Shown here one piece after another: positions 23,879-42,254 of a stretch of 64,000 nucleotides of DNA. Origin of the DNA: Escherichia coli (GTDB taxonomy: Bacteria; Pseudomonadota; Gammaproteobacteria; Enterobacterales; Enterobacteriaceae); assembly GCF_003790525.1 (NCBI RefSeq), contig NZ_CP033635.1. The stretch is one strand, 5' to 3'. The number at the start of each line of letters is the position of its first letter. The first letter of the stretch is position 1. The notes under the pieces were generated by a model. The model saw only the letters and a list, made by a program, of their open reading frames with translations, did no database searches and was not told where the DNA came from. Both the position numbers and the translations under genes were made by a program.

Positions 23879-24016
23879 TAACATTTTTCCGCTTCGCCAC
23901 CTCGCCCCTCACGCTTTCCAATAATGTTGCACAAGATACTGTGACTCTCTTCAAGCCGTCAGCAGGCTGATAATGTTATTTATATTTTATTGTTTATTTC
24001 ATGCAGCCATTACACG

Positions 24017-24373
24017 ATGAACGCTTATGAACTCCAGGCACTTCGCCATATTTTTGCCATGACTATTGATGAATGCGCGACCTGGATTGCCCAGACCGGT
24101 GACAGTGAAAGCTGGCGTCAGTGGGAAAATGGCAAATGCGCCATTCCTGATTGTGTAGTCGAGCAACTGTTGGCTATGCGTCAGCAACGAAAAAAACATC
24201 TTCATGCCATCATAGAGAAAATAAATAACCGCATCGGCAACAACACCATGCGTTTTTTCCCCGACTTAACCGCGTTTCAACAAGTCTACCCTGATGGCAA
24301 TTTTATTGACTGGAAGATCTATCAATCGGTAGCCGCTGAATTATATGCACACGATCTGGAGCGGCTTTGTTAA
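24017..24373 (+). CDS. ydiL: Uncharacterised protein YdiL (118 aa)
   Basis: Known protein begins MNAYELQALRHIF; the ORF track's 23990 start is an upstream extension. Confidence 0.8.
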   Translation: MNAYELQALRHIFAMTIDECATWIAQTGDSESWRQWENGKCAIPDCVVEQLLAMRQQRKKHLHAIIEKINNRIGNNTMRFFPDLTAFQQVYPDGNFIDWKIYQSVAAELYAHDLERLC

Positions 24374-24472
24374 TTTCCCCACAGAAAGGAATTGTCGTTG
24401 TTACAACAATAATGAACGGATACTGACACAACATCGCTACACTTTTTAAAGCACCTTTGCTAAGTAGAACCT

Positions 24473-25687: not shown

Positions 25688-25907
25688 TGCAATATTCTTT
25701 TCAGGTTATGCAAGATCTTACGGATAAATAACTCTTTCTGCGCTAACTAAGGAAAATCGCGATCAAAAACAAACTATGACATGCAATATTCCTGGAAACA
25801 TAAACTTTATGCCATGTACACAGGGAAAATCATCTTCAGTATAGTAATTATGTAAACCGTCGGAGAACAATACGTACGGTAACGAAATTATCTTTCAGCA
25901 AGGAGCT

Positions 25908-27179
25908 GTGAAAATGTCTCAAAATAAGGCTTTCAGCACGCCATTTATCCTGGCTGTTCTTTGTATTTACTTCAGCTATTTCCTGCACGGCATTAGTGTT
26001 ATTACGCTTGCCCAAAACATGACATCTCTGGCAGAAAAGTTTTCCACTGACAACGCGGGCATTGCCTATTTAATTTCCGGTATCGGTTTGGGGCGATTGA
26101 TCAGTATTTTATTCTTCGGTGTGATCTCCGATAAGTTTGGTCGTCGGGCGGTGATATTAATGGCAGTAATAATGTATCTGCTATTCTTCTTTGGTATTCC
26201 TGCTTGCCCGAATTTAACTCTCGCCTACTGTCTGGCAGTGTGCGTAGGTATCGCTAACTCAGCGCTGGATACGGGTGGCTACCCCGCGCTCATGGAATGC
26301 TTTCCGAAAGCCTCTGGTTCGGCGGTCATACTGGTTAAAGCGATGGTGTCATTCGGGCAAATGTTCTACCCAATGCTGGTGAGCTATATGTTGCTCAATA
26401 ACATCTGGTACGGCTATGGGCTGATTATTCCGGGTATTCTGTTTGTACTGATCACGCTGATGCTGTTGAAAAGCAAATTCCCCAGCCAGTTGGTGGACGC
26501 CAGCGTAGCTAATGAATTACCGCAAATGAACAGCAAACCGTTAGTCTGGCTGGAAGGTGTTTCATCAGTACTGTTCGGTGTAGCCGCATTCTCGACCTTT
26601 TATGTGATTGTGGTGTGGATGCCCAAATATGCGATGGCTTTTGCTGGTATGTCAGAAGCTGAGGCATTAAAAACCATCTCTTATTACAGTATGGGTTCGC
26701 TGGTCTGTGTCTTTATTTTTGCCGCACTGCTGAAAAAAATGGTCCGGCCCATCTGGGCTAATGCATTTAACTCTGCACTGGCAACAATAACAGCTGCCAT
26801 TATCTACCTGTACCCTTCTCCATTGGTGTGTAATGCCGGAGCCTTTGTTATCGGTTTCTCAGCAGCTGGCGGCATTTTACAGCTCGGCGTTTCGGTCATG
26901 TCAGAGTTTTTCCCAAAAAGCAAAGCCAAAGTCACCAGTATATATATGATGATGGGTGGACTGGCTAACTTTGTTATTCCGCTGATTACCGGTTATCTGT
27001 CGAACATCGGCCTGCAATATATCATTGTTCTCGATTTTACTTTCGCGCTGCTGGCCCTGATTACCGCAATTATTGTTTTTATCCGCTATTACCGCGTTTT
27101 CATTATTCCTGAAAATGATGTGCGGTTTGGCGAGCATAAATTTAGCACCCGGTTAAACACAATTAAGCATAGAGGTTAA
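25908..27179 (+). CDS. ydiN: MFS transporter YdiN (about 421 aa)
   Basis: Paralogous to ydiM and directly upstream of ydiB-aroD. Confidence 0.85.
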
Positions 27180-27190
27180 AGGAGTTAATT

Positions 27191-28057
27191 ATGAATGTTA
27201 CCGCAAAATACGAATTGATTGGGTTGATGGCCTATCCCATCCGCCACAGTTTATCGCCCGAAATGCAGAATAAAGCCTTAGAAAAAGCGGGATTGCCATT
27301 TACCTATATGGCCTTTGAAGTGGATAACGATAGTTTTCCCGCAGCAATTGAAGGATTAAAAGCCCTCAAAATGCGTGGAACTGGTGTGTCGATGCCGAAC
27401 AAACAACTGGCGTGTGAATATGTTGATGAATTAACGCCAGCGGCCAAACTGGTGGGTGCCATCAACACCATCGTTAATGATGATGGCTATCTGCGTGGCT
27501 ATAACACCGACGGCACGGGTCATATTCGCGCCATTAAAGAGAGCGGTTTTGATATCAAAGGCAAAACGATGGTGCTATTAGGGGCCGGTGGTGCCTCAAC
27601 GGCAATTGGCGCGCAGGGGGCAATTGAAGGTTTAAAAGAAATTAAACTCTTTAACCGTCGGGATGAGTTCTTCGATAAAGCCCTCGCCTTCGCGCAGCGG
27701 GTTAACGAAAACACCGATTGTGTCGTCACGGTTACCGATCTCGCCGATCAGCAAGCCTTTGCTGAAGCCCTGGCTTCCGCCGACATTTTAACCAATGGCA
27801 CAAAAGTGGGTATGAAACCCCTTGAGAATGAATCATTGGTTCATGATATCAGTCTGTTACATCCGGGACTTCTGGTCACTGAATGCGTGTATAACCCGCA
27901 TATGACGAAGTTATTGCAGCAGGCGCAACAAGCGGGTTGCAAAACGATTGATGGATACGGCATGTTGTTGTGGCAAGGGGCTGAACAGTTCACGTTATGG
28001 ACTGGCAAAGATTTCCCTCTGGAATATGTTAAACAGGTCATGGGGTTCGGTGCCTGA
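27191..28057 (+). CDS. ydiB: Quinate/shikimate dehydrogenase YdiB (288 aa)
   Basis: AroE-family sequence with [10 protein letters not shown] nucleotide-binding motif. Confidence 0.92.
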
Positions 28058-28087
28058 CAGGCTGACCGCGTGCAGAAAGGGTAAAAA

Positions 28088-28846
28088 ATGAAAACCGTAA
28101 CTGTAAAAGATCTCGTCATTGGTACGGGCGCACCTAAAATCATCGTCTCGCTGATGGCGAAAGATATCGCCAGCGTGAAATCCGAAGCTCTCGCCTATCG
28201 TGAAGCGGACTTTGATATTCTGGAATGGCGTGTTGACCACTATGCCGACCTCTCCAATGTGGAGTCTGTCATGGCGGCAGCAAAAATTCTCCGTGAAACC
28301 ATGCCAGAAAAACCGCTGCTGTTTACCTTCCGCAGTGCCAAAGAAGGCGGCGAGCAGGCGATTTCCACCGAGGCTTATATTGCACTCAATCGTGCAGCCA
28401 TCGACAGTGGCCTGGTTGATATGATCGATCTGGAGTTATTTACCGGCGATGATCAGGTTAAAGAAACCGTCGCCTACGCCCACGCGCATGATGTGAAAGT
28501 TGTCATGTCTAACCATGACTTCCATAAAACGCCGGAAGCCGAAGAAATCATTGCCCGTCTGCGCAAAATGCAGTCCTTCGACGCCGATATTCCTAAGATT
28601 GCGCTGATGCCGCAAAGTACCAGCGATGTGCTGACGTTGCTTGCCGCGACCCTGGAGATGCAGGAGCAGTATGCCGATCGTCCAATCATCACGATGTCGA
28701 TGGCAAAAACTGGCGTAATTTCTCGTCTGGCTGGTGAAGTATTTGGGTCGGCGGCAACTTTTGGTGCGGTAAAAAAAGCCTCTGCGCCAGGGCAAATCTC
28801 GGTAAATGATTTGCGTACGGTATTAACTATTTTACATCAGGCATAA
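28088..28846 (+). CDS. aroD: 3-dehydroquinate dehydratase type I AroD (252 aa)
   Basis: Matches AroD by sequence and position. Confidence 0.93.
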
Positions 28847-28991
28847 GCAATAATATTTCGGCGGGAATACCCTCCCCCGCCGAACTAAAAAAAGTATTTT
28901 TAACCGTATTTAATAAAAATATTTCGTGAGTCTCTGTGCGCTAATTCTCCATCTGGCGTAGGGAAAATCACACCTGAATCAGGAATTAACA

Positions 28992-30587
28992 ATGAAACCT
29001 GTAAAACCACCTCGTATTAATGGACGAGTGCCGGTCCTGTCGGCACAGGAAGCGGTGAATTATATTCCCGACGAAGCAACACTTTGTGTGTTAGGCGCTG
29101 GCGGCGGTATTCTGGAAGCCACCACGTTAATTACTGCTCTTGCTGATAAATATAAACAGACTCAAACACCACGTAATTTATCGATTATTAGTCCAACAGG
29201 GCTTGGCGATCGCGCCGACCGTGGCATTAGTCCGCTGGCACAAGAAGGTCTGGTGAAATGGGCATTATGCGGTCACTGGGGACAATCGCCGCGTATTTCT
29301 GATCTCGCAGAACAAAATAAAATTATTGCTTATAACTATCCACAAGGTGTACTTACACAAACCTTACGCGCCGCCGCAGCCCACCAGCCTGGTATTATTA
29401 GTGATATTGGCATCGGAACATTTGTCGATCCACGCCAGCAAGGCGGCAAACTGAATGAAGTCACTAAAGAAGACCTGATTAAACTGGTCGAGTTTGATAA
29501 CAAAGAATATCTCTATTACAAATCGATTGCGCCAGATATCGCCTTCATTCGCGCTACCACCTGCGACAGCGAAGGCTACGCCACTTTTGAAGATGAGGTG
29601 ATGTATCTCGACGCATTGGTTATTGCTCAGGCGGTGCACAATAACGGCGGTATTGTGATGATGCAGGTGCAGAAAATGGTTAAGAAAGCCACGCTGCATC
29701 CTAAATCTGTCCGTATTCCGGGTTATCTGGTGGATATTGTGGTGGTCGATCCGGATCAAACCCAACTGTATGGCGGTGCACCGGTTAACCGCTTTATTTC
29801 TGGTGACTTCACCCTTGATGACAGTACCAAACTTAGCCTGCCCCTAAACCAACGTAAATTAGTTGCGCGGCGCGCATTATTCGAAATGCGCAAAGGCGCA
29901 GTGGGGAATGTCGGCGTCGGTATTGCTGACGGCATTGGCCTGGTCGCCCGGGAAGAAGGTTGTGCTGATGACTTTATTCTGACGGTAGAAACAGGTCCGA
30001 TTGGCGGTATTACTTCACAGGGGATCGCCTTTGGCGCGAACGTGAATACCCGCGCCATTCTGGATATGACGTCCCAGTTTGATTTTTATCACGGTGGTGG
30101 TCTGGATGTTTGTTATTTGAGTTTTGCTGAAGTCGACCAGCACGGTAACGTCGGCGTGCATAAATTCAATGGTAAAATCATGGGCACCGGTGGATTTATT
30201 GATATCAGTGCCACTTCGAAGAAAATCGTGTTCTGCGGCACATTAACTGCGGGCAGTTTAAAAACAGAAATTACCGACGGCAAATTAAATATCGTCCAGG
30301 AAGGACGGGTGAAGAAATTTATTCGGGAACTACCGGAAATAACTTTCAGCGGAAAAATCGCTCTCGAGCGAGGGCTGGATGTTCGTTATATCACTGAGCG
30401 CGCCGTATTCACGTTAAAAGAAGACGGCCTGCATTTAATCGAAATCGCTCCTGGCGTCGATTTACAAAAAGATATTTTCGACAAAATGGATTTCACCCCA
30501 GTGATTTCGCCAGAACTCAAACTGATGGACGAAAGATTATTTATCGATGCGGCGATGGGTTTTGTCCTGCCTGAAGCGGCTCATTAA
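28992..30587 (+). CDS. ydiF: Acyl-CoA:acetate CoA-transferase YdiF (531 aa)
   Basis: Fused alpha/beta CoA-transferase at the K-12 position. Confidence 0.9.
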   Translation: MKPVKPPRINGRVPVLSAQEAVNYIPDEATLCVLGAGGGILEATTLITALADKYKQTQTPRNLSIISPTGLGDRADRGISPLAQEGLVKWALCGHWGQSPRISDLAEQNKIIAYNYPQGVLTQTLRAAAAHQPGIISDIGIGTFVDPRQQGGKLNEVTKEDLIKLVEFDNKEYLYYKSIAPDIAFIRATTCDSEGYATFEDEVMYLDALVIAQAVHNNGGIVMMQVQKMVKKATLHPKSVRIPGYLVDIVVVDPDQTQLYGGAPVNRFISGDFTLDDSTKLSLPLNQRKLVARRALFEMRKGAVGNVGVGIADGIGLVAREEGCADDFILTVETGPIGGITSQGIAFGANVNTRAILDMTSQFDFYHGGGLDVCYLSFAEVDQHGNVGVHKFNGKIMGTGGFIDISATSKKIVFCGTLTAGSLKTEITDGKLNIVQEGRVKKFIRELPEITFSGKIALERGLDVRYITERAVFTLKEDGLHLIEIAPGVDLQKDIFDKMDFTPVISPELKLMDERLFIDAAMGFVLPEAAH

Positions 30588-30600
30588 CAGGAGTATAATG

Positions 30601-31752
30601 ATGGATTTTTCTTTAACTGAAGAACAAGAACTGCTGCTGGCCAGTATTCGCGAACTGATTACGACTAACTTTCCGGAAGAGTATTTCCGCACCTGCGATC
30701 AAAACGGGACATACCCGCGTGAGTTTATGCGGGCACTGGCGGATAACGGTATTTCCATGCTTGGCGTGCCGGAAGAATTTGGTGGTATCCCTGCGGATTA
30801 CGTCACCCAAATGCTGGCGCTGATGGAAGTGTCAAAATGCGGTGCTCCGGCATTTTTGATTACCAACGGTCAATGTATTCACAGTATGCGCCGTTTCGGT
30901 TCTGCAGAGCAGCTACGTAAAACGGCAGAGAGCACACTGGAAACGGGTGATCCCGCCTATGCCCTGGCATTGACGGAGCCAGGCGCAGGCTCAGACAACA
31001 ACAGTGCCACTACCACTTACACGCGTAAAAACGGCAAGGTTTACATCAACGGACAGAAAACCTTTATTACCGGTGCGAAAGAGTATCCATATATGCTGGT
31101 GTTGGCGCGCGATCCGCAACCGAAAGATCCGAAAAAGGCCTTTACTCTGTGGTGGGTCGACTCCAGTAAACCCGGCATTAAAATCAATCCACTGCATAAA
31201 ATCGGCTGGCATATGCTCAGCACCTGCGAAGTCTATCTCGACAACGTGGAAGTTGAAGAGAGCGACATGGTGGGCGAAGAAGGAATGGGTTTCCTCAATG
31301 TGATGTACAACTTTGAGATGGAGCGCCTGATCAACGCCGCGCGCAGCACCGGCTTTGCCGAATGCGCATTCGAAGATGCCGCCCGCTATGCCAACCAGCG
31401 TATCGCTTTTGGTAAGCCCATTGGTCATAACCAGATGATCCAGGAAAAACTGGCGCTGATGGCGATTAAGATCGACAACATGCGCAACATGGTGTTGAAA
31501 GTGGCATGGCAAGCCGATCAGCATCAGTCACTGCGCACCAGCGCGGCGCTGGCAAAACTGTACTGCGCACGTACCGCAATGGAAGTCATTGATGATGCGA
31601 TTCAAATCATGGGCGGTCTGGGCTATACCGATGAGGCGCGCGTGTCCCGCTTCTGGCGTGATGTCCGTTGTGAACGTATCGGCGGCGGTACAGACGAAAT
31701 TATGATTTACGTAGCGGGTCGGCAGATCCTGAAAGATTATCAGAACAAATAA
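30601..31752 (+). CDS. ydiO: Acyl-CoA dehydrogenase family protein YdiO (383 aa)
   Basis: Known protein begins MDFSLTEEQELL; the ORF track's 30547 start is an upstream extension. Confidence 0.9.
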   Translation: MDFSLTEEQELLLASIRELITTNFPEEYFRTCDQNGTYPREFMRALADNGISMLGVPEEFGGIPADYVTQMLALMEVSKCGAPAFLITNGQCIHSMRRFGSAEQLRKTAESTLETGDPAYALALTEPGAGSDNNSATTTYTRKNGKVYINGQKTFITGAKEYPYMLVLARDPQPKDPKKAFTLWWVDSSKPGIKINPLHKIGWHMLSTCEVYLDNVEVEESDMVGEEGMGFLNVMYNFEMERLINAARSTGFAECAFEDAARYANQRIAFGKPIGHNQMIQEKLALMAIKIDNMRNMVLKVAWQADQHQSLRTSAALAKLYCARTAMEVIDDAIQIMGGLGYTDEARVSRFWRDVRCERIGGGTDEIMIYVAGRQILKDYQNK

Positions 31753-31794
31753 TCTGCAGGCGGCGCAGCTTCTTAACAAACTGCGCCGCCAGAT

Positions 31795-32706
31795 TTATCC
31801 GGCAAGACTTACTGGTTGAGGAAATTCAGATAGGATTTCTTGTTCCGCAAAACAGTTTTTAAATTGCCTGCGGTAATCGCTGGGCGAACAGCCGACATGG
31901 CGCAAAAACAGTTTGGCAAAGTGATCGACATTTTCATAACCCACACGCCAGGAAATCTCTGCCTGTGATAATTCAGTATTAGTGAGTGACCATTTCGCTT
32001 CCGTCATACGCCGTTGAATAACATAGTTAATAGGGGAAATACGATACTCTTTGGTAAATTCATGGCAGATATAACTGACGCTGGCACGAAATTTTTTCGA
32101 TAACTGCTCTAAAGTGATTTTTTCGCGATAGTTATTATTCAGATAGAAAAGAATATCTTTTATCAGAACATCTTTTTTAATATATCCCTGCTCCGAACGA
32201 TAAGCATTTTTAAAGTTTTCGTAGTAAAGAATTGCTAACGTATAGGCAAATGCGTCCCATAACGAAGATGTTTGGCTATTTTTACTTTGCGGCAAAATCA
32301 CACTTAGCTCATTAAATAAGGTTTTAATGACTTCTTTTCCCTGCCCTGCGGCAATTACCGGGCAAGAATGCGGTTGCAGTAGCTGATTTTCCTCAGCCCC
32401 CTGAAACTGAAAGCCGTACAGCGCACAGGTACACGTCGTTGCCGGATCGTTAACGTCAGAGGCCACCGCATGCAGCCTGCCACGTTCTATCACCACAATG
32501 TCATCGGCATGCGCGACATATAACGAAGAATCGATGGTAAACCTTGCTACCCCTTTCTTGACGTAAATCAGCTCGGTTTCATTGTCATGAACGTGATGTC
32601 CGGACTCCCATTTTGGATCATCGCTAAATGCGAAACGTGAAAGCCGTGGCGTTTTACCGGCGACAAACAGCGTTTCACTGGCATTATCAAAACAGCGTTG
32701 ATACAT
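31795..32706 (-). CDS. ydiP: AraC-family transcriptional regulator YdiP (303 aa)
   Basis: N-terminal cupin-like domain and C-terminal AraC-type helix-turn-helix region. Confidence 0.88.
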   Translation of the reverse strand: MYQRCFDNASETLFVAGKTPRLSRFAFSDDPKWESGHHVHDNETELIYVKKGVARFTIDSSLYVAHADDIVVIERGRLHAVASDVNDPATTCTCALYGFQFQGAEENQLLQPHSCPVIAAGQGKEVIKTLFNELSVILPQSKNSQTSSLWDAFAYTLAILYYENFKNAYRSEQGYIKKDVLIKDILFYLNNNYREKITLEQLSKKFRASVSYICHEFTKEYRISPINYVIQRRMTEAKWSLTNTELSQAEISWRVGYENVDHFAKLFLRHVGCSPSDYRRQFKNCFAEQEILSEFPQPVSLAG

Positions 32707-33021
32707 GACAACCTCCCTATTCCATGAGCAAGCAAAAACAATATATGCCGGATAAAATACGGCGTGTATTGCGGTTATACAACCGCGTTTAGCGAGAGCT
32801 AAACAAGATTATTTACACTGAATGCAAGATTGTACGGTCATGGAATAACTATATTGCCGCAAATTGCACTTTTGTTTTAGCGATCGCATTTTTTTTGCAA
32901 GATTGTTGGCAAGGAAAACAGCTTGCTCCGTCGAAAACCCCGCACCGCTATCGCACACTATTTTCAGGCCATATTTACCTTCCATCGGAGATGGTTCCGT
33001 ATGCGACTCACAGGAGAAATC

Positions 33022-33786
33022 ATGAAAATAATAACCTGCTTTAAGCTGGTGCCTGAAGAACAGGACATTGTTGTCACTCCAGAATATACCCTGAATTTCG
33101 ACAATGCCGACGCCAAAATCAGCCAGTTCGATCTCAATGCCATTGAAGCTGCAAGCCAGCTTGCATCAGATGACGATGAGATAGCCGCGCTGACCATTGG
33201 CGGCTCATTGTTGCAGAACTCGAAAGTGCGAAAAGACGTGCTATCCCGCGGGCCGCATAGCCTGTATTTGGTGCAGGATGCGCAACTTGAACATGCACTG
33301 CCTCTCGATACCGCAAAGGCGCTGGCGGCAGCAGTTGAAAAGATCGGCTTCGATTTACTGATCTTTGGTGAAGGTTCCGGCGACCTTTATGCCCAGCAGG
33401 TTGGCTTGCTGGTCGGAGAAATTCTGCAACTTCCGGTGATTAATGCAGTGAGTGCTATTCAGCGTCAGGGCAATACACTGGTGATTGAACGCACGCTTGA
33501 AGATGATGTTGAAGTTATTGAGCTCTCTGTTCCAGCCGTGCTCTGCGTCACCTCCGATATTAACATGCCACGCATTCCTTCGATGAAAGCCATTCTCGGC
33601 GCGGGTAAAAAACCGGTAAATCAGTGGCAGGCAAGTGACATTGGCTGGAGCCAGAGCGCACCACTTGCTGAACTGACCGGTATTCGCGTACCGCCGCAAA
33701 CAGAACGTAAGCACATCATTCTCGATAACGATTCGCCGGAGGCCATTGCCGAGCTGGCGGAACATCTGAAGAAAGCCCTGAACTGA
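33022..33786 (+). CDS. ydiQ: Electron transfer flavoprotein beta-subunit-like YdiQ (254 aa)
   Basis: Known protein begins MKIITCFKLVPEE; the ORF track's 32923 start is an upstream extension. Confidence 0.9.
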   Translation: MKIITCFKLVPEEQDIVVTPEYTLNFDNADAKISQFDLNAIEAASQLASDDDEIAALTIGGSLLQNSKVRKDVLSRGPHSLYLVQDAQLEHALPLDTAKALAAAVEKIGFDLLIFGEGSGDLYAQQVGLLVGEILQLPVINAVSAIQRQGNTLVIERTLEDDVEVIELSVPAVLCVTSDINMPRIPSMKAILGAGKKPVNQWQASDIGWSQSAPLAELTGIRVPPQTERKHIILDNDSPEAIAELAEHLKKALN

Positions 33787-33805
33787 AGTCTACGGAGAAG
33801 AAACG

Positions 33806-34744
33806 ATGAGTCAATTAAACAGCGTCTGGGTCTTTAGCGATAATCCTGAACGTTATGCTGAACTGTTTGGCGGCGCTCAGCAATGGGGCCAACAGGTGTA
33901 TGCCATTGTACAAAATACCGAGCAGGCGCAGGCAGTTATGCCTTATGGGCCAAAATGCATTTATGTTCTTGAGCAAAACGACGCGCTGCAACGTACTGAA
34001 AATTACGCCGAAAGCATTGCTGCCCTGCTGAAAGATAAACACCCCGCTATGTTGCTGTTGGCCGCGACGAAACGTGGTAAAGCTCTGGCAGCACGGTTAA
34101 GTGTGCAACTGAATGCGGCGCTGGTGAACGATGCCACGGCGGTGGATATTGTCGATGGTCACATTTGCGCCGAACACCGGATGTATGGCGGGTTAGCGTT
34201 CGCACAGGAAAAGATCAACAGCCCGCTGGCGATCATTACCCTTGCACCCGGTGTTCAGGAACCGTGCACCCGTGATACCTCTCATCAGTGCCCGACAGAA
34301 ACGGTACCTTATGTTGCCCCGCGTCATGAAATTCTCTGTCGCGAACGCCGTGCGAAAGCGGCAAGCAGCGTGGACCTGAGCAAAGCAAAACGTGTGGTTG
34401 GCGTCGGTCGTGGTCTGGCGGCGCAGGATGACCTGAAAATGGTCCACGAACTGGCGGCAGTGCTGAATGCTGAAGTCGGCTGTTCACGTCCAATTGCCGA
34501 AGGCGAGAACTGGATGGAGCGTGAACGTTATATCGGTGTCTCCGGCGTGTTGCTGAAATCCGATCTCTACCTGACGCTGGGGATCTCCGGGCAGATCCAG
34601 CATATGGTTGGCGGCAACGGCGCAAAAGTGATTGTCGCCATCAATAAAGATAAAAATGCGCCAATCTTCAACTATGCCGACTACGGTCTGGTGGGCGATA
34701 TCTACAAAGTCGTCCCTGCCCTGATTAGCCAGTTGAGTCGCTAA
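33806..34744 (+). CDS. ydiR: Electron transfer flavoprotein alpha-subunit-like YdiR (312 aa)
   Basis: ETF alpha family, immediately downstream of ydiQ. Confidence 0.9.
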   Translation: MSQLNSVWVFSDNPERYAELFGGAQQWGQQVYAIVQNTEQAQAVMPYGPKCIYVLEQNDALQRTENYAESIAALLKDKHPAMLLLAATKRGKALAARLSVQLNAALVNDATAVDIVDGHICAEHRMYGGLAFAQEKINSPLAIITLAPGVQEPCTRDTSHQCPTETVPYVAPRHEILCRERRAKAASSVDLSKAKRVVGVGRGLAAQDDLKMVHELAAVLNAEVGCSRPIAEGENWMERERYIGVSGVLLKSDLYLTLGISGQIQHMVGGNGAKVIVAINKDKNAPIFNYADYGLVGDIYKVVPALISQLSR

Positions 34745-34798
34745 TTCCCTTTCAACCACATCTCCCGCTGTAAACGCAGCGGGAAGGGAGCATAACGC

Positions 34799-36088
34799 AT
34801 GTCGGATGACAAATTTGATGCCATTGTGGTCGGTGCGGGCGTTGCCGGTAGCGTTGCCGCACTGGTCATGGCGCAAGCCGGGCTGGATGTCCTGGTGATA
34901 GAACGCGGCGACAGTGCCGGATGTAAAAACATGACCGGCGGGCGTCTTTATGCCCACACACTTGAAGCGATTATTCCAGGCTTTGCAGCATCAGCGCCGG
35001 TAGAACGCAAGGTCACACGCGAGAAAATCTCCTTCTTAACCGATGAGAGTGCCGTTACCCTCGATTTTCACCGCGAGCAACCAGATGTTCCGCAACACGC
35101 GTCTTATACCGTATTGCGTAATCGTCTGGACCCGTGGTTGATGGAACAAGCCGAACAGGCTGGCGCGCAGTTTATCCCGGGCGTTCGTGTCGATGCGCTG
35201 GTTCGTGAAGGAAATAAGGTCACTGGCGTCCAGGCCGGGGATGATATTCTCGAAGCGAATGTGGTGATTCTGGCTGATGGCGTTAACTCGATGCTTGGCC
35301 GCTCGCTGGGAATGGTTCCCGCTTCCGATCCGCATCATTACGCTGTTGGTGTTAAAGAGGTTATTGGCCTCACACCAGAACAGATCAAGGATCGCTTTAA
35401 TATTACGGGCGAGGAAGGTGCCGCCTGGCTGTTTGCCGGTTCCCCTTCTGACGGCCTGATGGGCGGCGGATTCCTCTATACCAATAAGGATTCCATATCG
35501 TTGGGGCTGGTTTGTGGATTGGGTGATATCGCCCATGCGCAAAAAAGCGTGCCGCAAATGCTGGAAGATTTTAAACAACACCCCGCCATTCACCCGCTGA
35601 TTAGCGGCGGCAAACTGCTTGAATATTCCGCGCATATGGTGCCGGAGGGCGGTCTGGCAATGGTGCCGCAGCTGGTTAACGATGGCGTGATGATCGTTGG
35701 TGACGCCGCAGGCTTCTGCCTGAATTTGGGTTTTACAGTTCGCGGCATGGATTTAGCCATTGCATCAGCTCAGGCTGCCGCCACAACAGTGATTGCAGCC
35801 AAAGAACGCGCGGATTTCTCCGCCAGCAGTCTGGCGCAATACAAACGTGAGCTGGAACAAAGCTGCGTCATGCGTGATATGCAGCATTTTCGCAAGATCC
35901 CGGCGCTGATGGAAAATCCGCGCCTGTTTAGTCAGTATCCGCGCATGGTCGCCGACATCATGAACGAGATGTTCACCATTGACGGCAAACCAAACCAGCC
36001 GGTACGCAAAATGATCATGGGACACGCGAAGAAAATTGGGCTGATCAACTTGCTGAAAGATGGCATTAAGGGAGCAACCGCGCTATGA
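34799..36088 (+). CDS. ydiS: ETF-quinone oxidoreductase-like flavoprotein YdiS (429 aa)
   Basis: FAD-binding motif VVGAGVAGS; FixC-like. Confidence 0.9.
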   Translation: MSDDKFDAIVVGAGVAGSVAALVMAQAGLDVLVIERGDSAGCKNMTGGRLYAHTLEAIIPGFAASAPVERKVTREKISFLTDESAVTLDFHREQPDVPQHASYTVLRNRLDPWLMEQAEQAGAQFIPGVRVDALVREGNKVTGVQAGDDILEANVVILADGVNSMLGRSLGMVPASDPHHYAVGVKEVIGLTPEQIKDRFNITGEEGAAWLFAGSPSDGLMGGGFLYTNKDSISLGLVCGLGDIAHAQKSVPQMLEDFKQHPAIHPLISGGKLLEYSAHMVPEGGLAMVPQLVNDGVMIVGDAAGFCLNLGFTVRGMDLAIASAQAAATTVIAAKERADFSASSLAQYKRELEQSCVMRDMQHFRKIPALMENPRLFSQYPRMVADIMNEMFTIDGKPNQPVRKMIMGHAKKIGLINLLKDGIKGATAL

Positions 36089-36378
36089 GCCAGAACGCTA
36101 CGGTTAACGTCGACATCAAATTAGGCGTCAATAAATTCCATGTTGATGAGGGACACCCGCATATCATTTTGGCGGCAAATCCCGATATCAATGAATTCCG
36201 TAAATTAATGAAAGCTTGCCCTGCCGGACTTTATAAGCAGGATGACGCAGGAAACATTCATTTCGATTCCGCCGGTTGTCTGGAGTGCGGCACCTGTCGG
36301 GTGCTGTGCGGCAACACTATTCTCGAACAGTGGCAATATCCCGCAGGCACCTTCGGTATTGATTTTCGCTACGGCTAA
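36085..36378 (+). CDS. ydiT: Ferredoxin-like protein YdiT (97 aa)
   Basis: FixX-like with CxxCxxC motif; overlaps the ydiS stop by 4 nt. Confidence 0.88.
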   Translation: MSQNATVNVDIKLGVNKFHVDEGHPHIILAANPDINEFRKLMKACPAGLYKQDDAGNIHFDSAGCLECGTCRVLCGNTILEQWQYPAGTFGIDFRYG

Positions 36379-36380
36379 TC

Positions 36381-38075
36381 ATGCATCCCACAGGCCCGCA
36401 TCTCGGGCCTGATGTTCTGTTTCGAGAGTCCAAAATGAAAGTGACATTAACGTTTAACGAACAACGTCGTGCGGCGTATCGTCAGCAAGGGCTATGGGGC
36501 GATGCTTCGCTGGCCGATTACTGGCAGCAGACCGCTCGTGCGATGCCAGACAAAATTGCCGTGGTCGATAATCATGGTGCATCATACACCTATAGCGCGC
36601 TCGATCACGCCGCGAGCTGTCTGGCAAACTGGATGTTGACGAAGGGTATTGAATCAGGCGATCGCATCGCATTTCAACTGCCTGGCTGGTGTGAATTTAC
36701 CGTTATCTATCTTGCCTGCCTGAAAATCGGTGCGGTTTCCGTACCGCTGTTGCCTTCCTGGCGGGAAGCAGAACTAGTATGGGTACTCAATAAGTGTCAG
36801 GCAAAAATGTTCTTTGCACCGACGTTGTTTAAACAAACGCGTCCGGTAGATTTAATCCTGCCGCTGCAAAATCAGCTTCCACAACTACAACAAATTGTCG
36901 GCGTGGACAAACTGGCTCCCGCCACCTCTTCCCTCTCATTAAGTCAGATTCTCGCCGACAATACCCCACTGACTACGGCGATAACGACCCACGGCGATGA
37001 ATTAGCCGCTGTGCTATTTACCTCCGGAACCGAGGGTCTGCCAAAGGGCGTGATGCTAACGCATAACAATATTCTCGCCAGTGAGCGGGCTTATTGCGCG
37101 CGGCTGAATCTGACCTGGCAGGATGTCTTTATGATGCCTGCGCCACTTGGTCACGCAACGGGCTTTCTGCATGGCGTAACAGCACCATTTTTAATTGGTG
37201 CTCGCAGCGTGTTGTTAGATATTTTCACTCCTGCTGCGTGTCTCGCGCTGCTTGAGCAGCAGCGTTGCACCTGTATGCTCGGCGCAACGCCGTTTGTCTA
37301 TGATCTTTTGAATTTACTAGAGAAACAGCCCGCAGACCTTTCAGCGCTGCGTTTCTTTCTTTGTGGCGGTACCACAATCCCCAAAAAAGTGGCGCGTGAA
37401 TGCCAGCAGCGCGGCATTAAATTATTAAGTGTTTATGGTTCCACAGAAAGTTCGCCGCATGCGGTGGTGAATCTCGATGATCCTTTGTCGCGCTTTATGC
37501 ACACCGATGGTTACGCTGCCGCAGGTGTAGAGATTAAAGTGGTCGATGGCGCACGCAAGACCTTACCGCCAGGTTGCGAAGGTGAAGAAGCCTCGCGTGG
37601 CCCCAATGTGTTTATGGGGTATTTTGATGAACCTGAATTAACCGCCCATGCCCTGGATGAAGAAGGCTGGTATTACAGCGGCGATCTCTGCCGCATGGAT
37701 GAGGCTGGCTATATAAAAATAACCGGGCGCAAGAAAGATATTATTGTCCGCGGCGGCGAAAATATTAGCAGCCGTGAAGTGGAAGATATTTTATTACAGC
37801 ATCCTAAAATTCACGATGCTTGTGTGGTTGCGATGCCCGATGAACGCTTAGGTGAACGTTCATGCGCTTATGTCGTGCTGAAAGCACCGCATCATTCATT
37901 ATCGCTGGAAGATGTAGTGGCATTTTTTAGCCGTAAACGGGTCGCGAAATATAAATATCCTGAACATATCGTGGTAATCGAAAAACTACCGCGCACTGCC
38001 TCCGGTAAAATACAAAAATTTTTGTTACGTAAAGATATTCTTCAACGGCTGGAACAAACATGCGTTGAGGCATAA
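36381..38075 (+). CDS. fadK: Short-chain acyl-CoA synthetase FadK (YdiD)
   Basis: AMP-binding motif FTSGTEGLPKG. Start is uncertain between 36381 and the internal ATG at 36435. Confidence 0.85.
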   Translation: MHPTGPHLGPDVLFRESKMKVTLTFNEQRRAAYRQQGLWGDASLADYWQQTARAMPDKIAVVDNHGASYTYSALDHAASCLANWMLTKGIESGDRIAFQLPGWCEFTVIYLACLKIGAVSVPLLPSWREAELVWVLNKCQAKMFFAPTLFKQTRPVDLILPLQNQLPQLQQIVGVDKLAPATSSLSLSQILADNTPLTTAITTHGDELAAVLFTSGTEGLPKGVMLTHNNILASERAYCARLNLTWQDVFMMPAPLGHATGFLHGVTAPFLIGARSVLLDIFTPAACLALLEQQRCTCMLGATPFVYDLLNLLEKQPADLSALRFFLCGGTTIPKKVARECQQRGIKLLSVYGSTESSPHAVVNLDDPLSRFMHTDGYAAAGVEIKVVDGARKTLPPGCEGEEASRGPNVFMGYFDEPELTAHALDEEGWYYSGDLCRMDEAGYIKITGRKKDIIVRGGENISSREVEDILLQHPKIHDACVVAMPDERLGERSCAYVVLKAPHHSLSLEDVVAFFSRKRVAKYKYPEHIVVIEKLPRTASGKIQKFLLRKDILQRLEQTCVEA

Positions 38076-38084
38076 GTCATAAAT

Positions 38085-38120
38085 AATAAAGCACCTTACA
38101 CGCAAGGTGCTTTATTCAAT
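38085..38120. terminator. Bidirectional rho-independent terminator between fadK and the downstream SDR gene
   Basis: AAAGCACCTT-ACACGC-AAGGTGCTTT hairpin with T-rich flanks on both strands. Confidence 0.7.
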
Positions 38121-38125
38121 CTCGA

Positions 38126-38869
38126 TTAACCACGTCCGACATACGGCATATTATTTGCCATAATCGTTATTTCCAGCACATTCGTGGTTACTGGCAACTG
38201 AGCCATCATCTGAATGGTCGCTGCAACATCAGCAACATTCATCATATCTTCCGCTTTAATAGCACCATCTGCCTGATAAACGCCCTTACGCATCCGATTC
38301 GATAATGTCGTTTCCGCATTGCCGATATTAATTTGCCCGCAAGCGATATTAAATTTGCGACAATCCAGGGAAATGGCCTTGGTCAACCCGGTAACAGCAT
38401 GTTTCGACGCCGTGTATGGCGCAGTATAGAGGCGCGGCGTCAGTGCAGAAATCGACGCATTGTTAATAATACGTCCTCCCATTGGCTGCTGCGCTTTCAT
38501 GATTTTAATCGCCTCTTTCGAACACAAAAATGTCGAATGAATATTGGCGTTAAACACGCGCGTCCACTCAGTAAACTCAACCTCTTCAATACTTTTTGCC
38601 GGACTATTATTGCCCGCATTTTTGAACAAGAGATCCAGTCGACCAAAAAGAGCCTTAATCTCGGCAAATAGCGCAACGACAGCGGACTCATCCGTGACAT
38701 CGGCAACCAGAGGAATAAAGCGTTCCTTGGCTAATCCTTGTGCACATTGCTGTAAGGTTTCTTCGTTACGCGCGGCAACAATAACTGTATATCCAATGTC
38801 ATAGAGTGCCTTTGCTGCTGCGTAGCCGATGCCTTTACTTCCCCCCGTCACCAGGGCAATTTTTGTCAT
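38126..38869 (-). CDS. Short-chain dehydrogenase/reductase (SDR) family oxidoreductase (247 aa)
   Basis: TGGSKGIGYAAA NAD(P)-binding motif, NAG motif and catalytic YTASK (YxxxK). Confidence 0.8.
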   Translation of the reverse strand: MTKIALVTGGSKGIGYAAAKALYDIGYTVIVAARNEETLQQCAQGLAKERFIPLVADVTDESAVVALFAEIKALFGRLDLLFKNAGNNSPAKSIEEVEFTEWTRVFNANIHSTFLCSKEAIKIMKAQQPMGGRIINNASISALTPRLYTAPYTASKHAVTGLTKAISLDCRKFNIACGQINIGNAETTLSNRMRKGVYQADGAIKAEDMMNVADVAATIQMMAQLPVTTNVLEITIMANNMPYVGRG

Positions 38870-38881
38870 AGCCAGCTCCGC

Positions 38882-39361
38882 CTATAATAAACTCATGTCG
38901 ATTTTCACGACTGTTTTTTTGATTTTTTCCACGTTATCGATTTTATAGCATGCCCGATGCACTTCTTCCGGAAAGACCACCACAAACTGTCCTGGTGTCA
39001 GCGTGATGATTCGATCATTAATACGTTCATCAGCATAAAAAATAACATCACGGTCGCCCAGGTGGCTTTCTACAACCGAGTTTTCCCCATCATCAAAATC
39101 CACACAAATCCGCTCTTCTCCGGCAATTAAAAAATGGACATCAAGATATTTACGATGAACTTCCGGTCGACATTCATGTAGTGGTTTAGTCATCGGTTCA
39201 ACCACGGTATAAAATATTGAGTCATCCTGAATAAAAACCTTCTCTCCCACAGGAAGACTATTCAGATCATGTTGTGAAAGATACTCAATGACACGAGTGA
39301 TGACAGGATGAAATGTCCGCTTTTGTTGTTCACTAAGATACGCGATATCACCATAAATCAT
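38882..39361 (-). CDS. YhcH/YjgK/YiaL-family (DUF386) protein, about 160 aa
   Basis: Conserved C-terminal block GQFVVVFPEEVHRACYKIDNVEKIKKTVVK resembles E. coli YhcH (DFVVFYPGEVHKP...KAVVKM). The ORF track extends to 39496; I place the start at MIYGDIAYL (39361). Confidence 0.65.
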   Translation of the reverse strand: MIYGDIAYLSEQQKRTFHPVITRVIEYLSQHDLNSLPVGEKVFIQDDSIFYTVVEPMTKPLHECRPEVHRKYLDVHFLIAGEERICVDFDDGENSVVESHLGDRDVIFYADERINDRIITLTPGQFVVVFPEEVHRACYKIDNVEKIKKTVVKIDMSLL

Positions 39362-39371
39362 ATTTTCCGCC

Positions 39372-40330
39372 TTATTGAGTAACAGGGGTAATAACTGGCC
39401 GTCCGCTAAAGAAAGCCTGTAAGTTATCAAATACCAAATCCGCCATCGCATTAAACGTTTCGCTCGTACCACTGGCGATATGTGGCGTAAGGACAACGTT
39501 ATCCAGCGACATTAATTGTTCTGGCACATGTGGTTCGTTGGCATAAACGTCCAGTGCCGCACCAGCAATGATGTTATTTTGCAGAGCATCAATCAGATCG
39601 GTTTCGTTCACCACTGATCCCCGGGAAATACTGATCAAATGCCCGGTTTTCCCCAGAGCCTGCAGCACCGTTTTGTCAATAACGCCGCGCGTACTCGCGC
39701 CGCCTGGCAGCGTCAGAACGAGGAAGTCCACCGCTTGCGCCAGAGAAACCAACGAATCATGCGCCGTCCAATCAGGTTTGTTATGCGGTTTTGGGTCGAA
39801 ATAGTGAATTTCCATTTCAAATGCTGCTGCACGGCGGGCTACTGCGTTACCAATGTTCCCCAGACCGACAATTCCGCAACGTTTGCCACTCACTTTCGTC
39901 GCCATCGGGAAACGCCCCTCGTTTGGCCAACGGCCGTCACGAACATAACAATCGGCAATGTTAATACGTCGGGCAACATTGAGTAACAACGCTATACCAA
40001 TGTCTGCGACACAGTCATTAAGCACGCCAGGTGTGTTGGTGACGATAACGCCATGCTCCCTGGCTGCCACGATATCAATAGGGTCATAACCCACACCGTT
40101 GCTGGCAATAATCTTCAGATTCGGAATTTTTCTATTAGCGCCCGAGAAGCCCCCATTACCGGATTACCACTGGTCACCAGCGCCTGAATATCCGGCGCGA
40201 TTTGCGTGTAAAAAGCGCCTTCATCAGCCAGTTCCCACAGGCGATATGCGGTGAAGGTAGATTCAACTTTAGCCATTAAGCGGTCACTTAATTTGCCGAC
40301 GATCGCCACTTGAATATCTTTTAAGTTCAT
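39372..40330 (-). pseudogene. D-isomer-specific 2-hydroxyacid dehydrogenase, split by a probable 1-nt deletion
   Basis: N-terminal 71-aa ORF (40115..40330) and C-terminal 240-aa ORF (39372..40094; GIVGLGNIGNAVA NAD motif, catalytic His in HIASGT) are in different frames. The junction reads GAAAAATTCCGAATCTGAAGATT (minus strand); one extra C would give the contiguous EKFPNLKIIASNGVGYDPIDI. Confidence 0.7.
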
Positions 40331-40365
40331 ACACTATTCCTTGATTGATGTTTGTCGCAGGCCAC

Positions 40366-41772
40366 TTACCACAGGCCAAGAATTTTCCACCACACCGCCC
40401 CCAGTCCGAACCAGATGGCAATGTTCAACAACATGACGATAAAGCCCAGCCGCCACCATTCTCGTTGCGAGACATAGCCAGCGCCGTAATAGATCACTGC
40501 GGGTCCGTTGCCATAATGCGAAATGCCGCTCATCAGGTTAGTGACGAACGCCAGTGACAGAGCCGCCATCATCGGCGGTGCGCCAGCAGCAACCGAGACG
40601 CTGCCAAAAGCGGCATACATCGCCACTACATGCGGCGTACTTCCGGCAAAGAAATAGTGGGAATAGCAGTAAACTATCAGCAACACCGTCAACGTTATCT
40701 CCCACGGAATGCCGGTGAACAGCGCCGAGGTTGTGACGGCAAACCATTTGAACAGGCCAAGCTGATTGAGCTTATCTGCCATACAGATCATGACTCCCAG
40801 CCAGACCAGAATGTCCCAGGCCCCCTTCTCTGACTGCACATCCTGCCAGGTGATAATCCGGGTCATCAACATTAAACAGACGCCAGAAAGCGCGACAGCC
40901 GTCGCATCCAGGCCAGTCCATTTCGATGTACTCCAGGCCAATAATGAAAGCAGGAAAATGCCAATTGTCACGCGCTCATCACGGGTTACCGGCCCCATTT
41001 TGATAAGTTCTTCCTGTGCCAACGCTTTGGCTTCTGGCGTCTTTTTGATCTCTGGCGGGTAGAGTTTGTAAATGACCAACGGCATAGTGATAAAAGCGAT
41101 AATGCCCGGCACCAGTGCGCTTAGCGTCCACATCCCCCATGAGATATCGACAAATAAAGTGCTGGCCGCCAGAGATACAATGAGTGCATTTGGCGCGCTG
41201 GCCGTCATAAACATCGAGGATGAGAGACAGTTGGAATGGAACACCGTCTGCATCAGATAAGCGCCTATTTTACGCGGCCCTTGATCCGGTTCAGATCCAA
41301 AGCTGTTAGAGACACTGCGAACAATCGGGAACAAAATCCCTCCTGCTCGCGCTGTGTTTGATGGCGTTGCGGGCGCGATAATCATATCGCTTAGCGCCAA
41401 TGTATAACCCAGACGCAACGAGCTGCCGCCAAATCCGCGAATCAGCAAATAGGCGATACGCCGCCCCAACCCCGTTTTGATGAATCCTTTCGCGTACAGG
41501 AATGCGGCGACAATAAGCCATACCGTCGTGCTGCTGAAACCTTTTAAGGCTTCGCTGGTTTTCATCATACCGGTCAGCATAATAAAACTGATGGCTATTA
41601 ACGCGATAGCGCCCACCGGCAACGGTTGCAGAATAAACGCCACCACAGTGGTGATAAATATGGCCAGAATGTGCCAGGTTAAGGGTGTTAATCCGTCGGG
41701 GACGGGGAAAAACCATATAGCGAGTGCGACAATCGCACAAATCAGGACTTTCAAATAGCAACTCATATGCAA
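40366..41772 (-). CDS. DASS-family anion transporter (CitT/TtdT-like), 466-468 aa
   Basis: Motifs shared with E. coli CitT: FPVPDG, GFSSTTVWL, GLGRRIA, TPSNTARAGG, SSSMF, YWRLG-like C-terminus. The second ATG at 41766 has the better Shine-Dalgarno spacing. Confidence 0.8.
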   Translation of the reverse strand: MHMSCYLKVLICAIVALAIWFFPVPDGLTPLTWHILAIFITTVVAFILQPLPVGAIALIAISFIMLTGMMKTSEALKGFSSTTVWLIVAAFLYAKGFIKTGLGRRIAYLLIRGFGGSSLRLGYTLALSDMIIAPATPSNTARAGGILFPIVRSVSNSFGSEPDQGPRKIGAYLMQTVFHSNCLSSSMFMTASAPNALIVSLAASTLFVDISWGMWTLSALVPGIIAFITMPLVIYKLYPPEIKKTPEAKALAQEELIKMGPVTRDERVTIGIFLLSLLAWSTSKWTGLDATAVALSGVCLMLMTRIITWQDVQSEKGAWDILVWLGVMICMADKLNQLGLFKWFAVTTSALFTGIPWEITLTVLLIVYCYSHYFFAGSTPHVVAMYAAFGSVSVAAGAPPMMAALSLAFVTNLMSGISHYGNGPAVIYYGAGYVSQREWWRLGFIVMLLNIAIWFGLGAVWWKILGLW

Positions 41773-42218
41773 TCCCTGTAGCTGTTTCCCACCGCTCGCG
41801 GAGGGAATTTATCCTGTTTTCTGTACAGCCAGACAAATCAGAAAATCGGTTTTAGTTCGAATAAATTCTCTGAATTACATAATCTGCGCTTATGTCTGAA
41901 TAACGGTGCGGTAATTTTTCATGGCCATATCCCTTTTTATGCTGTGGTTGAAGATAGTATAAAAACGGGACTCATCAGTGACTTCGTGCAATCCAACGAA
42001 CTCTGGACGAAAAAATTACGCATATGCTTAAGGAAATTGACGTGTGGTCACATTCGGCTTTGAGAAAAAACGGTATCGAGAATTATTCTGTGGAGAGGAT
42101 CGCAAACAAATTAAAATCAGAAAGAACAGCAGCCAATTATTCAGATGATGTCCGGAAACTTTTTATATTGCATGAGCGCGTTTGCCCAAAGCAGGTTGTT
42201 AAAAGGTGGGGATATAGA

Positions 42219-42253
42219 AATGGACCCGGCGACTGAACGCCGCCGGGTTTTTA
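42219..42253. terminator. Terminator hairpin abutting the ppsA stop codon
   Basis: ACCCGGCG-ACTGAA-CGCCGGGT followed by TTTTTATTT on the plus strand; likely the ppsA terminator acting bidirectionally. Confidence 0.6.
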
Positions 42254-42254
42254 T

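Follow-up and report, generated by a model that had tools for sequence, protein, structure and literature searches.

A candidate CoA-thioester-dependent module for shikimate/quinate respiration at the ydiN-fadK locus of Escherichia coli

The ydiF-ydiO / ydiP / ydiQRST-fadK cluster of Escherichia coli encodes a CoA-transferase, an acyl-CoA dehydrogenase-family enzyme, a regulator, a set of electron-transferring flavoprotein (ETF) components and an acyl-CoA ligase. It was analysed here in a 64,000-nucleotide stretch of contig NZ_CP033635.1 (the window), of which the 11 kb at 28000-39000 are 100% identical to the chromosome of E. coli SMS-3-5 (NC_010498.1). Conserved gene order suggests that the functional unit starts further upstream, at ydiN (25914), and forms an 11-gene module, ydiN-ydiB-aroD / ydiF-ydiO / ydiP / ydiQRST-fadK, at 25914-38075. 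This module very probably carries out a CoA-thioester-dependent enoate reduction of the cai/fix type. The chances are even that its substrate is shikimate/quinate and that it serves as an anaerobic electron sink reducing these compounds. The complete proposal, offered tentatively and with slightly less than even confidence, is that E. coli, many Enterobacterales and gut Sutterella possess a cytoplasmic, CoA-thioester-dependent shikimate/quinate respiration, in which the whole module would turn quinate and shikimate from the diet into hydroshikimate with quinol electrons delivered along a FixABCX-like chain.

A preliminary description made from the sequence alone had placed the boundaries of the cluster at 28992-38075, from the ATG of ydiF to the stop codon of fadK. 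These limits are correct for ydiF to fadK but too narrow, since the conserved unit also takes in ydiN-ydiB-aroD (25914-28846). The same description held the physiological substrate not to be firmly settled; indeed, no paper assigning one was found in the open literature searched. Nor did this search, which did not extend to subscription journals, find any paper linking the ydi genes to shikimate, quinate, hydroshikimate or electron acceptors. A survey of the E. coli y-ome gives ydiO as an example of a gene with "limited functional information", and ydiFO are described elsewhere only generically, as fatty-acid degradation genes.

Conservation of the wider module

The three genes preceding ydiF are all on the plus strand. 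RefSeq annotation identifies them as ydiN (25914-27179), a transporter of the major facilitator superfamily (MFS) with an MFS_1 domain; ydiB (27191-28057), a quinate/shikimate dehydrogenase with Shikimate_dh_N and SDH_C domains; and aroD (28088-28846), a type I 3-dehydroquinate dehydratase with a DHquinase_I domain. Their association with the ydi cluster was assessed by scanning one genome per species for YdiO and mapping the E. coli proteins onto the 45 loci recovered, which belong to Escherichia, Citrobacter, Kosakonia, Intestinirhabdus, Yersinia, Serratia, Brenneria, Dickeya, Prodigiosinella, Symbiopectobacterium and Sutterella. The scan uses exact peptide words; it missed Salmonella, where the gene order is the same, and it says nothing on absence from Klebsiella or Enterobacter. 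The block ydiN-ydiB-aroD-ydiF-ydiO is contiguous and co-oriented in 40 of the 45 loci (about 12 genera), and in 37 of them ydiQRST lies no more than 10 kb away. The five exceptions comprise three contig ends, one decayed copy and one deletion, and ydiB is syntenic in every locus with enough upstream sequence. Identity to the E. coli proteins across the loci is 80-97% for YdiO, 83-93% for YdiF and 75-93% for YdiB, whereas ydiP, ydiR and fadK are much less conserved.

The copies in Sutterella, a genus of gut Betaproteobacteria, are particularly informative. The module is rearranged there as fadK-ydiT-ydiS-ydiR-ydiQ <-> ydiN-ydiB-aroD-ydiF-ydiO, its YdiO is 80-84% identical to that of E. coli, and the neighbouring genes, for cytochromes, transporters and cytochrome-c biogenesis, are unrelated. 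This points to transfer of the quinate/shikimate and acyl-CoA/ETF genes as a unit that has since been kept together.

Two further layouts appear to link a dehydroquinase, of type I or type II, to YdiF/YdiO homologues independently. In the first (loci L050 and L051, YdiO 77% identical), a single operon reads MFS-YdiF-YdiO-EtfB-EtfA-DHquinase_I-FixC-FixX-ligase; its type I dehydroquinase, located between etfA and fixC, is 65% identical to AroD, and the MFS gene heading the L050 operon is 46% identical to YdiN. In the second (L056), a YdiF homologue (65%) is followed by a MaoC dehydratase and then by a type II dehydroquinase of unrelated fold. More distant YdiO paralogues (61-68%), such as those of Desulfovibrio (L052) and E. 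albertii (L053), lie in the same generic module with other accessory genes. This recurrence shows what looks like a reusable chassis, whose varying accessory genes would define its substrate. With ydiN-ydiB-aroD as part of the conserved unit, a role in fatty-acid metabolism is therefore less likely than one in quinate/shikimate metabolism.

Some matches were set aside. YdiO homologues of 61-74% identity (L048, L052, L053 and L054) are paralogues in other contexts and were excluded from the argument on substrate. An apparent YdiB-YdiF fusion (P0175, on a 4.1-kb ENA contig) was rejected as Rosetta-stone evidence: its 651-aa predicted protein joins approximately the first 245 residues of a YdiB homologue to a YdiF homologue from about residue 125, and the junction truncates ydiB and removes aroD together with roughly the first 120 residues of YdiF. 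A deletion or misassembly, rather than a functional fusion, is the most likely origin. A full enterobacterial-type cluster with a YdiO 91% identical to that of E. coli occurs on a contig labelled Martelella alba, an alphaproteobacterium (L031, NZ_SZPQ01000057.1), but looks like contamination or a mislabelled contig, not a real alphaproteobacterial copy. In Enterobacter sp. EA-1 (L046, CP025776.1) matches are fragmentary (YdiO 70%, AroD 51%, FadK 55%) and ydiN, ydiP and ydiS are absent among them, which suggests a decaying, pseudogenised copy.

Other contexts of these families were also recorded. Next to a desulfoferrodoxin gene, the E. albertii-type contig L053 carries a second, paralogous module. 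It comprises EtfBA, two acyl-CoA dehydrogenases, one of them sharing 68% identity with YdiO, a family III CoA-transferase, an MFS transporter and an AraC regulator. In anaerobic Firmicutes and Synergistetes, YdiF homologues (61-65%) repeatedly form a trio with a MaoC dehydratase plus a reductase of the ApbA or NMO type, found in L057 (Hominifimenecus sp., CP167068.1), L058 (a Cloacibacillus-type contig) and L056. The L057 trio is preceded by four carboxylesterase/feruloyl-esterase-like genes and an MFS transporter, a context that, speculatively, fits breakdown of chlorogenate (caffeoyl-quinate).

Gene products, proposed pathway and its alternatives

The gene identities given in the preliminary description, and its view that the content is complete, both stand: RefSeq annotation names the same genes, NCBIfam and Pfam agree, and every open reading frame (ORF) is unbroken. 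K-12 MG1655 (b1694-b1701) has the same genes in the same order and on the same strands, with equal lengths except for fadK and protein identities of 96.6-100%.

Two plus-strand genes open the cluster. ydiF (28992-30587) encodes a single-chain family I CoA-transferase (PF01144; annotation, NCBIfam and Pfam) that aligns along its entire length (1186 bits, residues 1-531) with the solved structures 2AHU/2AHV/2AHW. ydiO (30601-31752; annotation and NCBIfam) encodes an enzyme of the acyl-CoA dehydrogenase (ACAD) family that scores 787 bits against its own equivalog model, NF008997, and 452 bits against its second-best model, that of the crotonobetainyl-CoA reductase CaiA. Because the latter score lies below the 540-bit cut-off of the CaiA equivalog, YdiO is best classed as a paralogue of CaiA and not as CaiA itself. 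By inspection of the sequence rather than structural alignment, residues 360-364 read IGGGT where the usual YEG catalytic glutamate stands, and a glutamate occurs at residue 241, within FEMERL, presumably at the position where isovaleryl-CoA dehydrogenase-type enzymes carry their catalytic base.

Transcribed from the minus strand, and divergently from ydiQ, ydiP (31795-32706) encodes an AraC-family regulator with a cupin ligand-binding domain (Cupin_2/AraC_binding and HTH_18). The remaining genes return to the plus strand. ydiQ (33022-33786) and ydiR (33806-34744) encode ETF beta (FixA-like) and ETF alpha (FixB-like), both supported by annotation, NCBIfam and Pfam; ydiS (34799-36088; annotation and NCBIfam) encodes a FixC-type ETF-quinone oxidoreductase and overlaps by 4 nt with ydiT (36085-36378), which encodes a FixX-type ferredoxin. 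YdiQ (325 bits, cut-off 219) and YdiS (640 bits, cut-off 610) pass the thresholds of the FixA and FixC models, while YdiR (321 bits on FixB) and YdiT (144 bits on FixX) align over their full length at scores below cut-off. In overall similarity only, YdiR is closer to the large subunits of bifurcating Etf complexes (134-120 bits) than to canonical ETF (107 bits).

The last gene, fadK (36435-38075; annotation, NCBIfam and Pfam), encodes an AMP-forming acyl-CoA ligase of 546 aa. Its own NCBIfam model is named for a medium-chain ligase; the next is cyclohexanecarboxylate-CoA ligase (425 bits), and 2,3-dihydroxybenzoate-AMP ligase follows a few ranks lower (322 bits). Among solved structures it comes closest to salicylate and 2,3-dihydroxybenzoate adenylating enzymes rather than to fatty-acyl-CoA synthetases. 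On these comparisons, the nearest characterised relatives of FadK appear to activate six-membered-ring carboxylates rather than fatty acids. The generic parts of the system, as predicted from the encoded proteins, are thus a CoA-transferase, a CaiA-like flavoenzyme, a FixABCX-like electron chain and a ligase.

In the proposed mechanism, an alpha,beta-unsaturated carboxylic acid would first be activated to its CoA thioester. FadK would provide the ATP-dependent priming step, once, and YdiF would then recycle CoA by moving it from product to fresh substrate. YdiO would act as enoyl-CoA reductase and reduce the C=C bond, with electrons passing from the quinol pool through YdiS/YdiT (FixC/FixX-like) and YdiQ/YdiR (FixA/FixB-like). 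Shikimate is a cyclohex-1-ene-1-carboxylate; shikimoyl-CoA would yield 3,4,5-trihydroxycyclohexane-1-carbonyl-CoA, to be released as hydroshikimate. Quinate would reach shikimate through YdiB, AroD and YdiB again, by way of dehydroshikimate, and YdiN could import or export quinate, shikimate or the reduced product. YdiP may switch on ydiQRST-fadK through TGCAAGATTGT sites, with FNR adding anaerobic control. By analogy with cai/fix, operation would be anaerobic and reductive, with the substrate as electron acceptor.

Shikimate is favoured as substrate because of the synteny described above and the physiology of Sutterella. Little et al. (bioRxiv 10.1101/2022.12.26.521950) reported that the enoate group of shikimate is reduced to 3,4,5-trihydroxycyclohexanecarboxylate (hydroshikimate) by both S. 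wadsworthensis and E. lenta, and that shikimate stimulates the growth of Sutterella with formate. Their RNA-seq covered E. lenta and H. filiformis only; the Sutterella enzyme was not identified, and acyl-CoA systems are not mentioned. The ring-carboxylate relatives of FadK and the FNR peak at ydiP/ydiQ described below also speak for this reading. In a shikimate-overproducing E. coli, moreover, ydiQ, ydiR, ydiS and ydiT were among 37-50 genes that changed significantly between growth phases, an observation that is suggestive but confounded by growth phase and made without a wild-type control.

Several observations weigh against this reading. In E. lenta, shikimate induces a flavin reductase and not an acyl-CoA system (Little et al.), and because Sutterella also encodes many flavin reductases its correlation with shikimate reduction may be coincidental. 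aroD is the biosynthetic dehydroquinase of E. coli, so that its adjacency could be partly historical, and neither the L050 nor the L056 layout includes a YdiB-type dehydrogenase. Sequence does not reveal whether the reaction runs as a reduction or as an oxidation. FadK is reportedly induced anaerobically and active on C6-C12 fatty acids in vitro; YdiF has been characterised on short acyl-CoAs, and ydiO has reportedly been tied genetically to anaerobic fatty-acid use. No E. coli experiment tying these genes to shikimate/quinate was found in the literature searched.

Among alternatives, the one that fares best, itself unlikely, is CoA-dependent reduction by the module of a different enoate, for instance crotonate, acrylate or a hydroxycinnamate, in which case its adjacency to ydiN-ydiB-aroD would reflect inherited order with no shared pathway. 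The generic combination of transporter, CoA-transferase, ACAD, FixABCX and ligase does recur with other accessory genes in the Desulfovibrio and E. albertii loci, presumably for other substrates. Moreover, the 145-nt aroD-ydiF spacer contains a GC-rich hairpin directly 3' of the aroD stop codon (28854-28887, an inverted repeat with a terminator-like match) that is probably a transcription-unit boundary; because of this spacer and its hairpin, aroD and ydiF seem to lie in separate transcription units in E. coli. Nor did enterobacterial loci show the putative YdiP motif, described below, ahead of ydiN or ydiF. However, inherited order accounts poorly for a five-gene block held together through cross-class transfer and rearrangement, or for dehydroquinases of two unrelated folds in or beside homologous operons of two further layouts; for a gene that is usually single-copy, chance adjacency would be about 0.2% per case, a rough estimate rather than a computed value.

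Anaerobic fatty-acid beta-oxidation, the reading behind the current names (RefSeq "medium-chain fatty-acid--CoA ligase" and "acyl-CoA dehydrogenase"), is less probable still. YdiO and YdiQRST would replace FadE and pass acyl-CoA electrons to the quinone pool, FadK would activate short- and medium-chain acids, and YdiF would handle short-chain acids. This agrees with the reported properties of FadK, with the FNR peak at ydiP/ydiQ discussed below and with a second-hand statement, in a passage of a citing paper, that ydiO is important for fatty-acid use in a fadE mutant. Nevertheless, no enoyl-CoA hydratase, 3-hydroxyacyl-CoA dehydrogenase or thiolase is present in 25914-38075 or in the syntenic loci, and the genes co-segregate with quinate/shikimate genes, not with fad genes, across genera and after horizontal transfer. 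The closest characterised relatives of FadK act on ring carboxylates, and since C6-C8 acids approximate the size of a cyclohexane carboxylate, the activity attributed to FadK could be promiscuous. In addition, a 2026 review states that deletion or overexpression of ydiO barely alters crotonyl-CoA/butyrate flux.

Least likely is an oxidative salvage route, in which hydroshikimate from other gut microbes would be activated and dehydrogenated by YdiO, with electrons passing via ETF and YdiS to quinone, while YdiB and AroD would convert quinate, so that both routes feed shikimate to aromatic amino-acid synthesis: it shares the synteny evidence, and the usual direction of ETF and ETF-quinone oxidoreductase (acyl-CoA to quinone), the mitochondrial ETF-ubiquinone oxidoreductase 2GMH as second closest solved relative of YdiS after FixC, and the biosynthetic nature of aroD all suit it, but the nearest paralogues, CaiA and FixABCX, act reductively in E. 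coli, module-bearing Sutterella reduces shikimate and gains growth, and FNR binding suggests anaerobic use.

If shikimate/quinate respiration is indeed the function, it would represent a new electron sink in the anaerobic physiology of gut Enterobacteriaceae and Sutterella, give a function to about ten E. coli y-genes and supply a reason for keeping the puzzling paralogue YdiB; the name fadK and the "fatty-acid" annotation would then need reconsidering. Ten conserved, near-universal E. coli genes are concerned that have no settled physiological role, and their synteny makes function testable. Plant-rich diets supply quinate and shikimate in abundance, for instance through chlorogenic acid, and microbial reduction of the two contributes to host-visible metabolites.

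Regulatory sequences, gene starts and flanking DNA

The spacer between the divergent ydiP and ydiQ genes is 315 nt long and contains three copies of the heptamer CAAGATT. Two half-sites, CAAGATTATTT...TGCAAGATTGT, form a ydiP-proximal pair on the plus strand at 32804-32833, 21 bp apart and about 97 nt from the ydiP start; the third, also on the plus strand (32896-32906), consists of a T-run followed by TGCAAGATTGT, 124 nt upstream of the ydiQ ATG. Of 42 ydiP-ydiQ spacers compared, 41 retain the motif in this orientation, with 68 occurrences across the 42 against 1.8 expected from shuffles, and its distances to ydiP or ydiQ are also conserved. Within these loci it is largely limited to this spacer, with few isolated matches elsewhere. 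An extended consensus, TTTTTTTGCAAGATTGTTGG..AAAACA, is common to Escherichia, Citrobacter, Kosakonia, Serratia and Symbiopectobacterium. These sites are interpreted as a putative YdiP operator.

In S. wadsworthensis (L038), two TGCAAGATTGT-like sequences 37 nt apart lie upstream of ydiQ (3812-3860) and another upstream of ydiN (4681), and no ydiP homologue was seen in the 21 kb of sequence covered. Such sequences are not clearly shared by S. seckii (L034). In the window, the locus-tag series omits ECSMS35_RS07585 between ydiP (RS07590) and ydiQ (RS07580), and 32707-33021 carries no annotated feature.

A chromatin immunoprecipitation (ChIP-chip) peak for FNR has been assigned to ydiP/ydiQ (PMC1802558). 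The site predicted beneath it corresponds to TTGACGTAAATCAG at 32558-32571 of the window, an FNR-box-like sequence inside the 5' end of ydiP whose K-12 version ends in A. A search for FNR half-sites found no good site in the ydiP-ydiQ spacer, and the only literature-backed site is the one inside ydiP. Generic promoter and terminator scans gave no more matches than in shuffled sequences, and two hairpins, those following aroD and ydiT, were kept on comparative grounds. An Rfam scan of 24000-44000 found no RNA families.

Upstream of ydiN, the ydiM-ydiN spacer contains a perfect 11-nt direct repeat, ATGCAATATTC, at 25687-25697 and 25781-25791 (94 nt apart), which may be a regulatory site. In Yersinia, Brenneria, Dickeya, Serratia and Prodigiosinella (L022, L023, L024, L030 and L039, at approximately 3200-4700) a divergent LysR regulator gene is located between ydiM and ydiN; Escherichia, Citrobacter and Salmonella lack this gene. 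Regulators of the LysR family are found beside the L050 and L056 operons as well. None of those near ydiN (Yersinia, Serratia, Dickeya) or in L050 and L056 matches a specific NCBIfam regulator family, and they provide no clue to a ligand.

Two candidate starts for fadK, 36381 and 36435, had been left for alignment to decide. The K-12 MG1655 annotation has the longer form, which has 566 aa and corresponds to 36381, whereas PGAP places the start here at 36435. The ydiT-fadK junction was compared across 41 loci of other strains and genera, and the comparison favours the latter. All 41 have an ATG at the position of 36435, with a purine-rich GAGA/GGGA element before it. By contrast, the upstream ATG occurs only in K-12 and SMS-3-5 among the loci compared; three other Escherichia lineages have ACG at this position, a single C/T difference, and most genera have an in-frame stop 1-8 codons upstream of the 36435 equivalent. 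The 56-nt ydiT-fadK spacer also contains a GC-rich hairpin with a T-rich tail on the plus strand (36391-36411; 8 bp stem with 7 G-C pairs). Within Escherichia its stem is invariant and its loop variable, and non-homologous GC hairpins occupy the same spacer in Citrobacter, Kosakonia, Yersinia and Serratia. Because the downstream ATG is universal, the upstream one rare, and stops and hairpins intervene, 36435 is taken as the ancestral fadK start and the spacer as a conserved structural element, with the 54 nt upstream of 36435 predicted to be non-coding. The E. coli hairpin is likely to be an intercistronic attenuator or stabiliser. The corrected start is a practical by-product of the analysis and departs from the curated K-12 record.

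The longer mechanical ORFs of ydiO (from 30547), ydiQ (from TTG 32923) and fadK (from 36381) are all unsupported. The alignments to family models begin at residue 1 of the shorter forms, and Shine-Dalgarno sequences occur only at the shorter starts (AGGAG/GGAG for ydiO and ydiQ, with AGGAG at ydiO). For these two reasons the alignments confirm 30601 and 33022 as the predicted starts of ydiO and ydiQ.

The locus itself is already known K-12 content, and its low novelty had been correctly anticipated: of 5426 complete E. coli genomes, 5341 contain 80% or more of the 11-kb stretch, making it near-universal, ordinary E. coli content. What the present analysis adds is the corrected fadK start, a unit that begins at ydiN and a specific functional hypothesis. 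Strain E69 (CP089930.1, L047) is one of about 85 E. coli genomes without the full locus; a deletion from within ydiF to ppsA has removed ydiO through fadK. Between fadK and ppsA, SMS-3-5 carries a four-gene island that K-12 does not have. This island (38126-41767, all genes on the minus strand) encodes an SDR oxidoreductase, a YhcH/YjgK/YiaL protein, a 2-hydroxyacid dehydrogenase and an anion permease, and occurs in only 114 of the 5426 genomes, and in E. whittamii (L005). Relative to K-12, the last approximately 15 residues of FadK differ and the protein is 2 codons shorter; this divergence (about 38030-38075) falls at the island junction.

Comparison with known systems

One close parallel is the cai/fix carnitine system of E. 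coli (caiTABCDE and fixABCX), whose substrate is an anaerobic electron acceptor handled as a CoA ester. Both systems combine an ACAD-family reductase, a FixA/B/C/X-like chain, an AMP-forming ligase, a CoA-transferase and a transporter. They differ in that YdiF belongs to CoA-transferase family I (PF01144) and CaiB to family III, that the ydi regulator is of the AraC type, and that the ydi module has no CaiD-type hydratase, the proposed preparatory enzymes being YdiB and AroD.

Caffeate respiration in Acetobacterium woodii (CarABCDE) shares the CoA loop of transferase and priming ligase, an ACAD-type enoyl-CoA reductase and a dedicated EtfAB. Within the caffeyl-CoA reductase-Etf complex (CarCDE, 6FAH), CarD is the best solved relative of YdiQ and CarC and CarE also have ydi matches, although similarity is low (87-159 bits). 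Car is a soluble complex without FixC/FixX, whereas the ydi set adds this quinone-linked pair. The bifurcating FixABCX/EtfABCX complex of Thermotoga maritima (7KOE) provides the best solved relative of YdiS, its FixC (chain C, 240 bits), and its Etf subunits match YdiR and YdiQ; the likeness is one of overall similarity only, and the ydi partner would be an acyl-CoA reductase rather than the electron carriers of nitrogenase.

The shikimate-induced flavin reductase of Eggerthella lenta (bioRxiv 10.1101/2022.12.26.521950) has the same net reaction as that proposed here, from shikimate to 3,4,5-trihydroxycyclohexanecarboxylate as a respiratory electron sink. Its class is unrelated: it belongs to a group that the cited work compares with fumarate and urocanate reductases, whereas YdiO would be an acyl-CoA reductase. 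Flavin reductases of this type act on the free acid and are not known to need CoA, ETF or ligase.

Finally, the classical qui/qsu clusters, which lead to protocatechuate, share with the ydi module a quinate/shikimate dehydrogenase and a dehydroquinase beside a transporter. No 3-dehydroshikimate dehydratase or protocatechuate-pathway gene was found among the annotated and Pfam-scanned ORFs in or beside the module; the downstream ydi enzymes are CoA-dependent instead.

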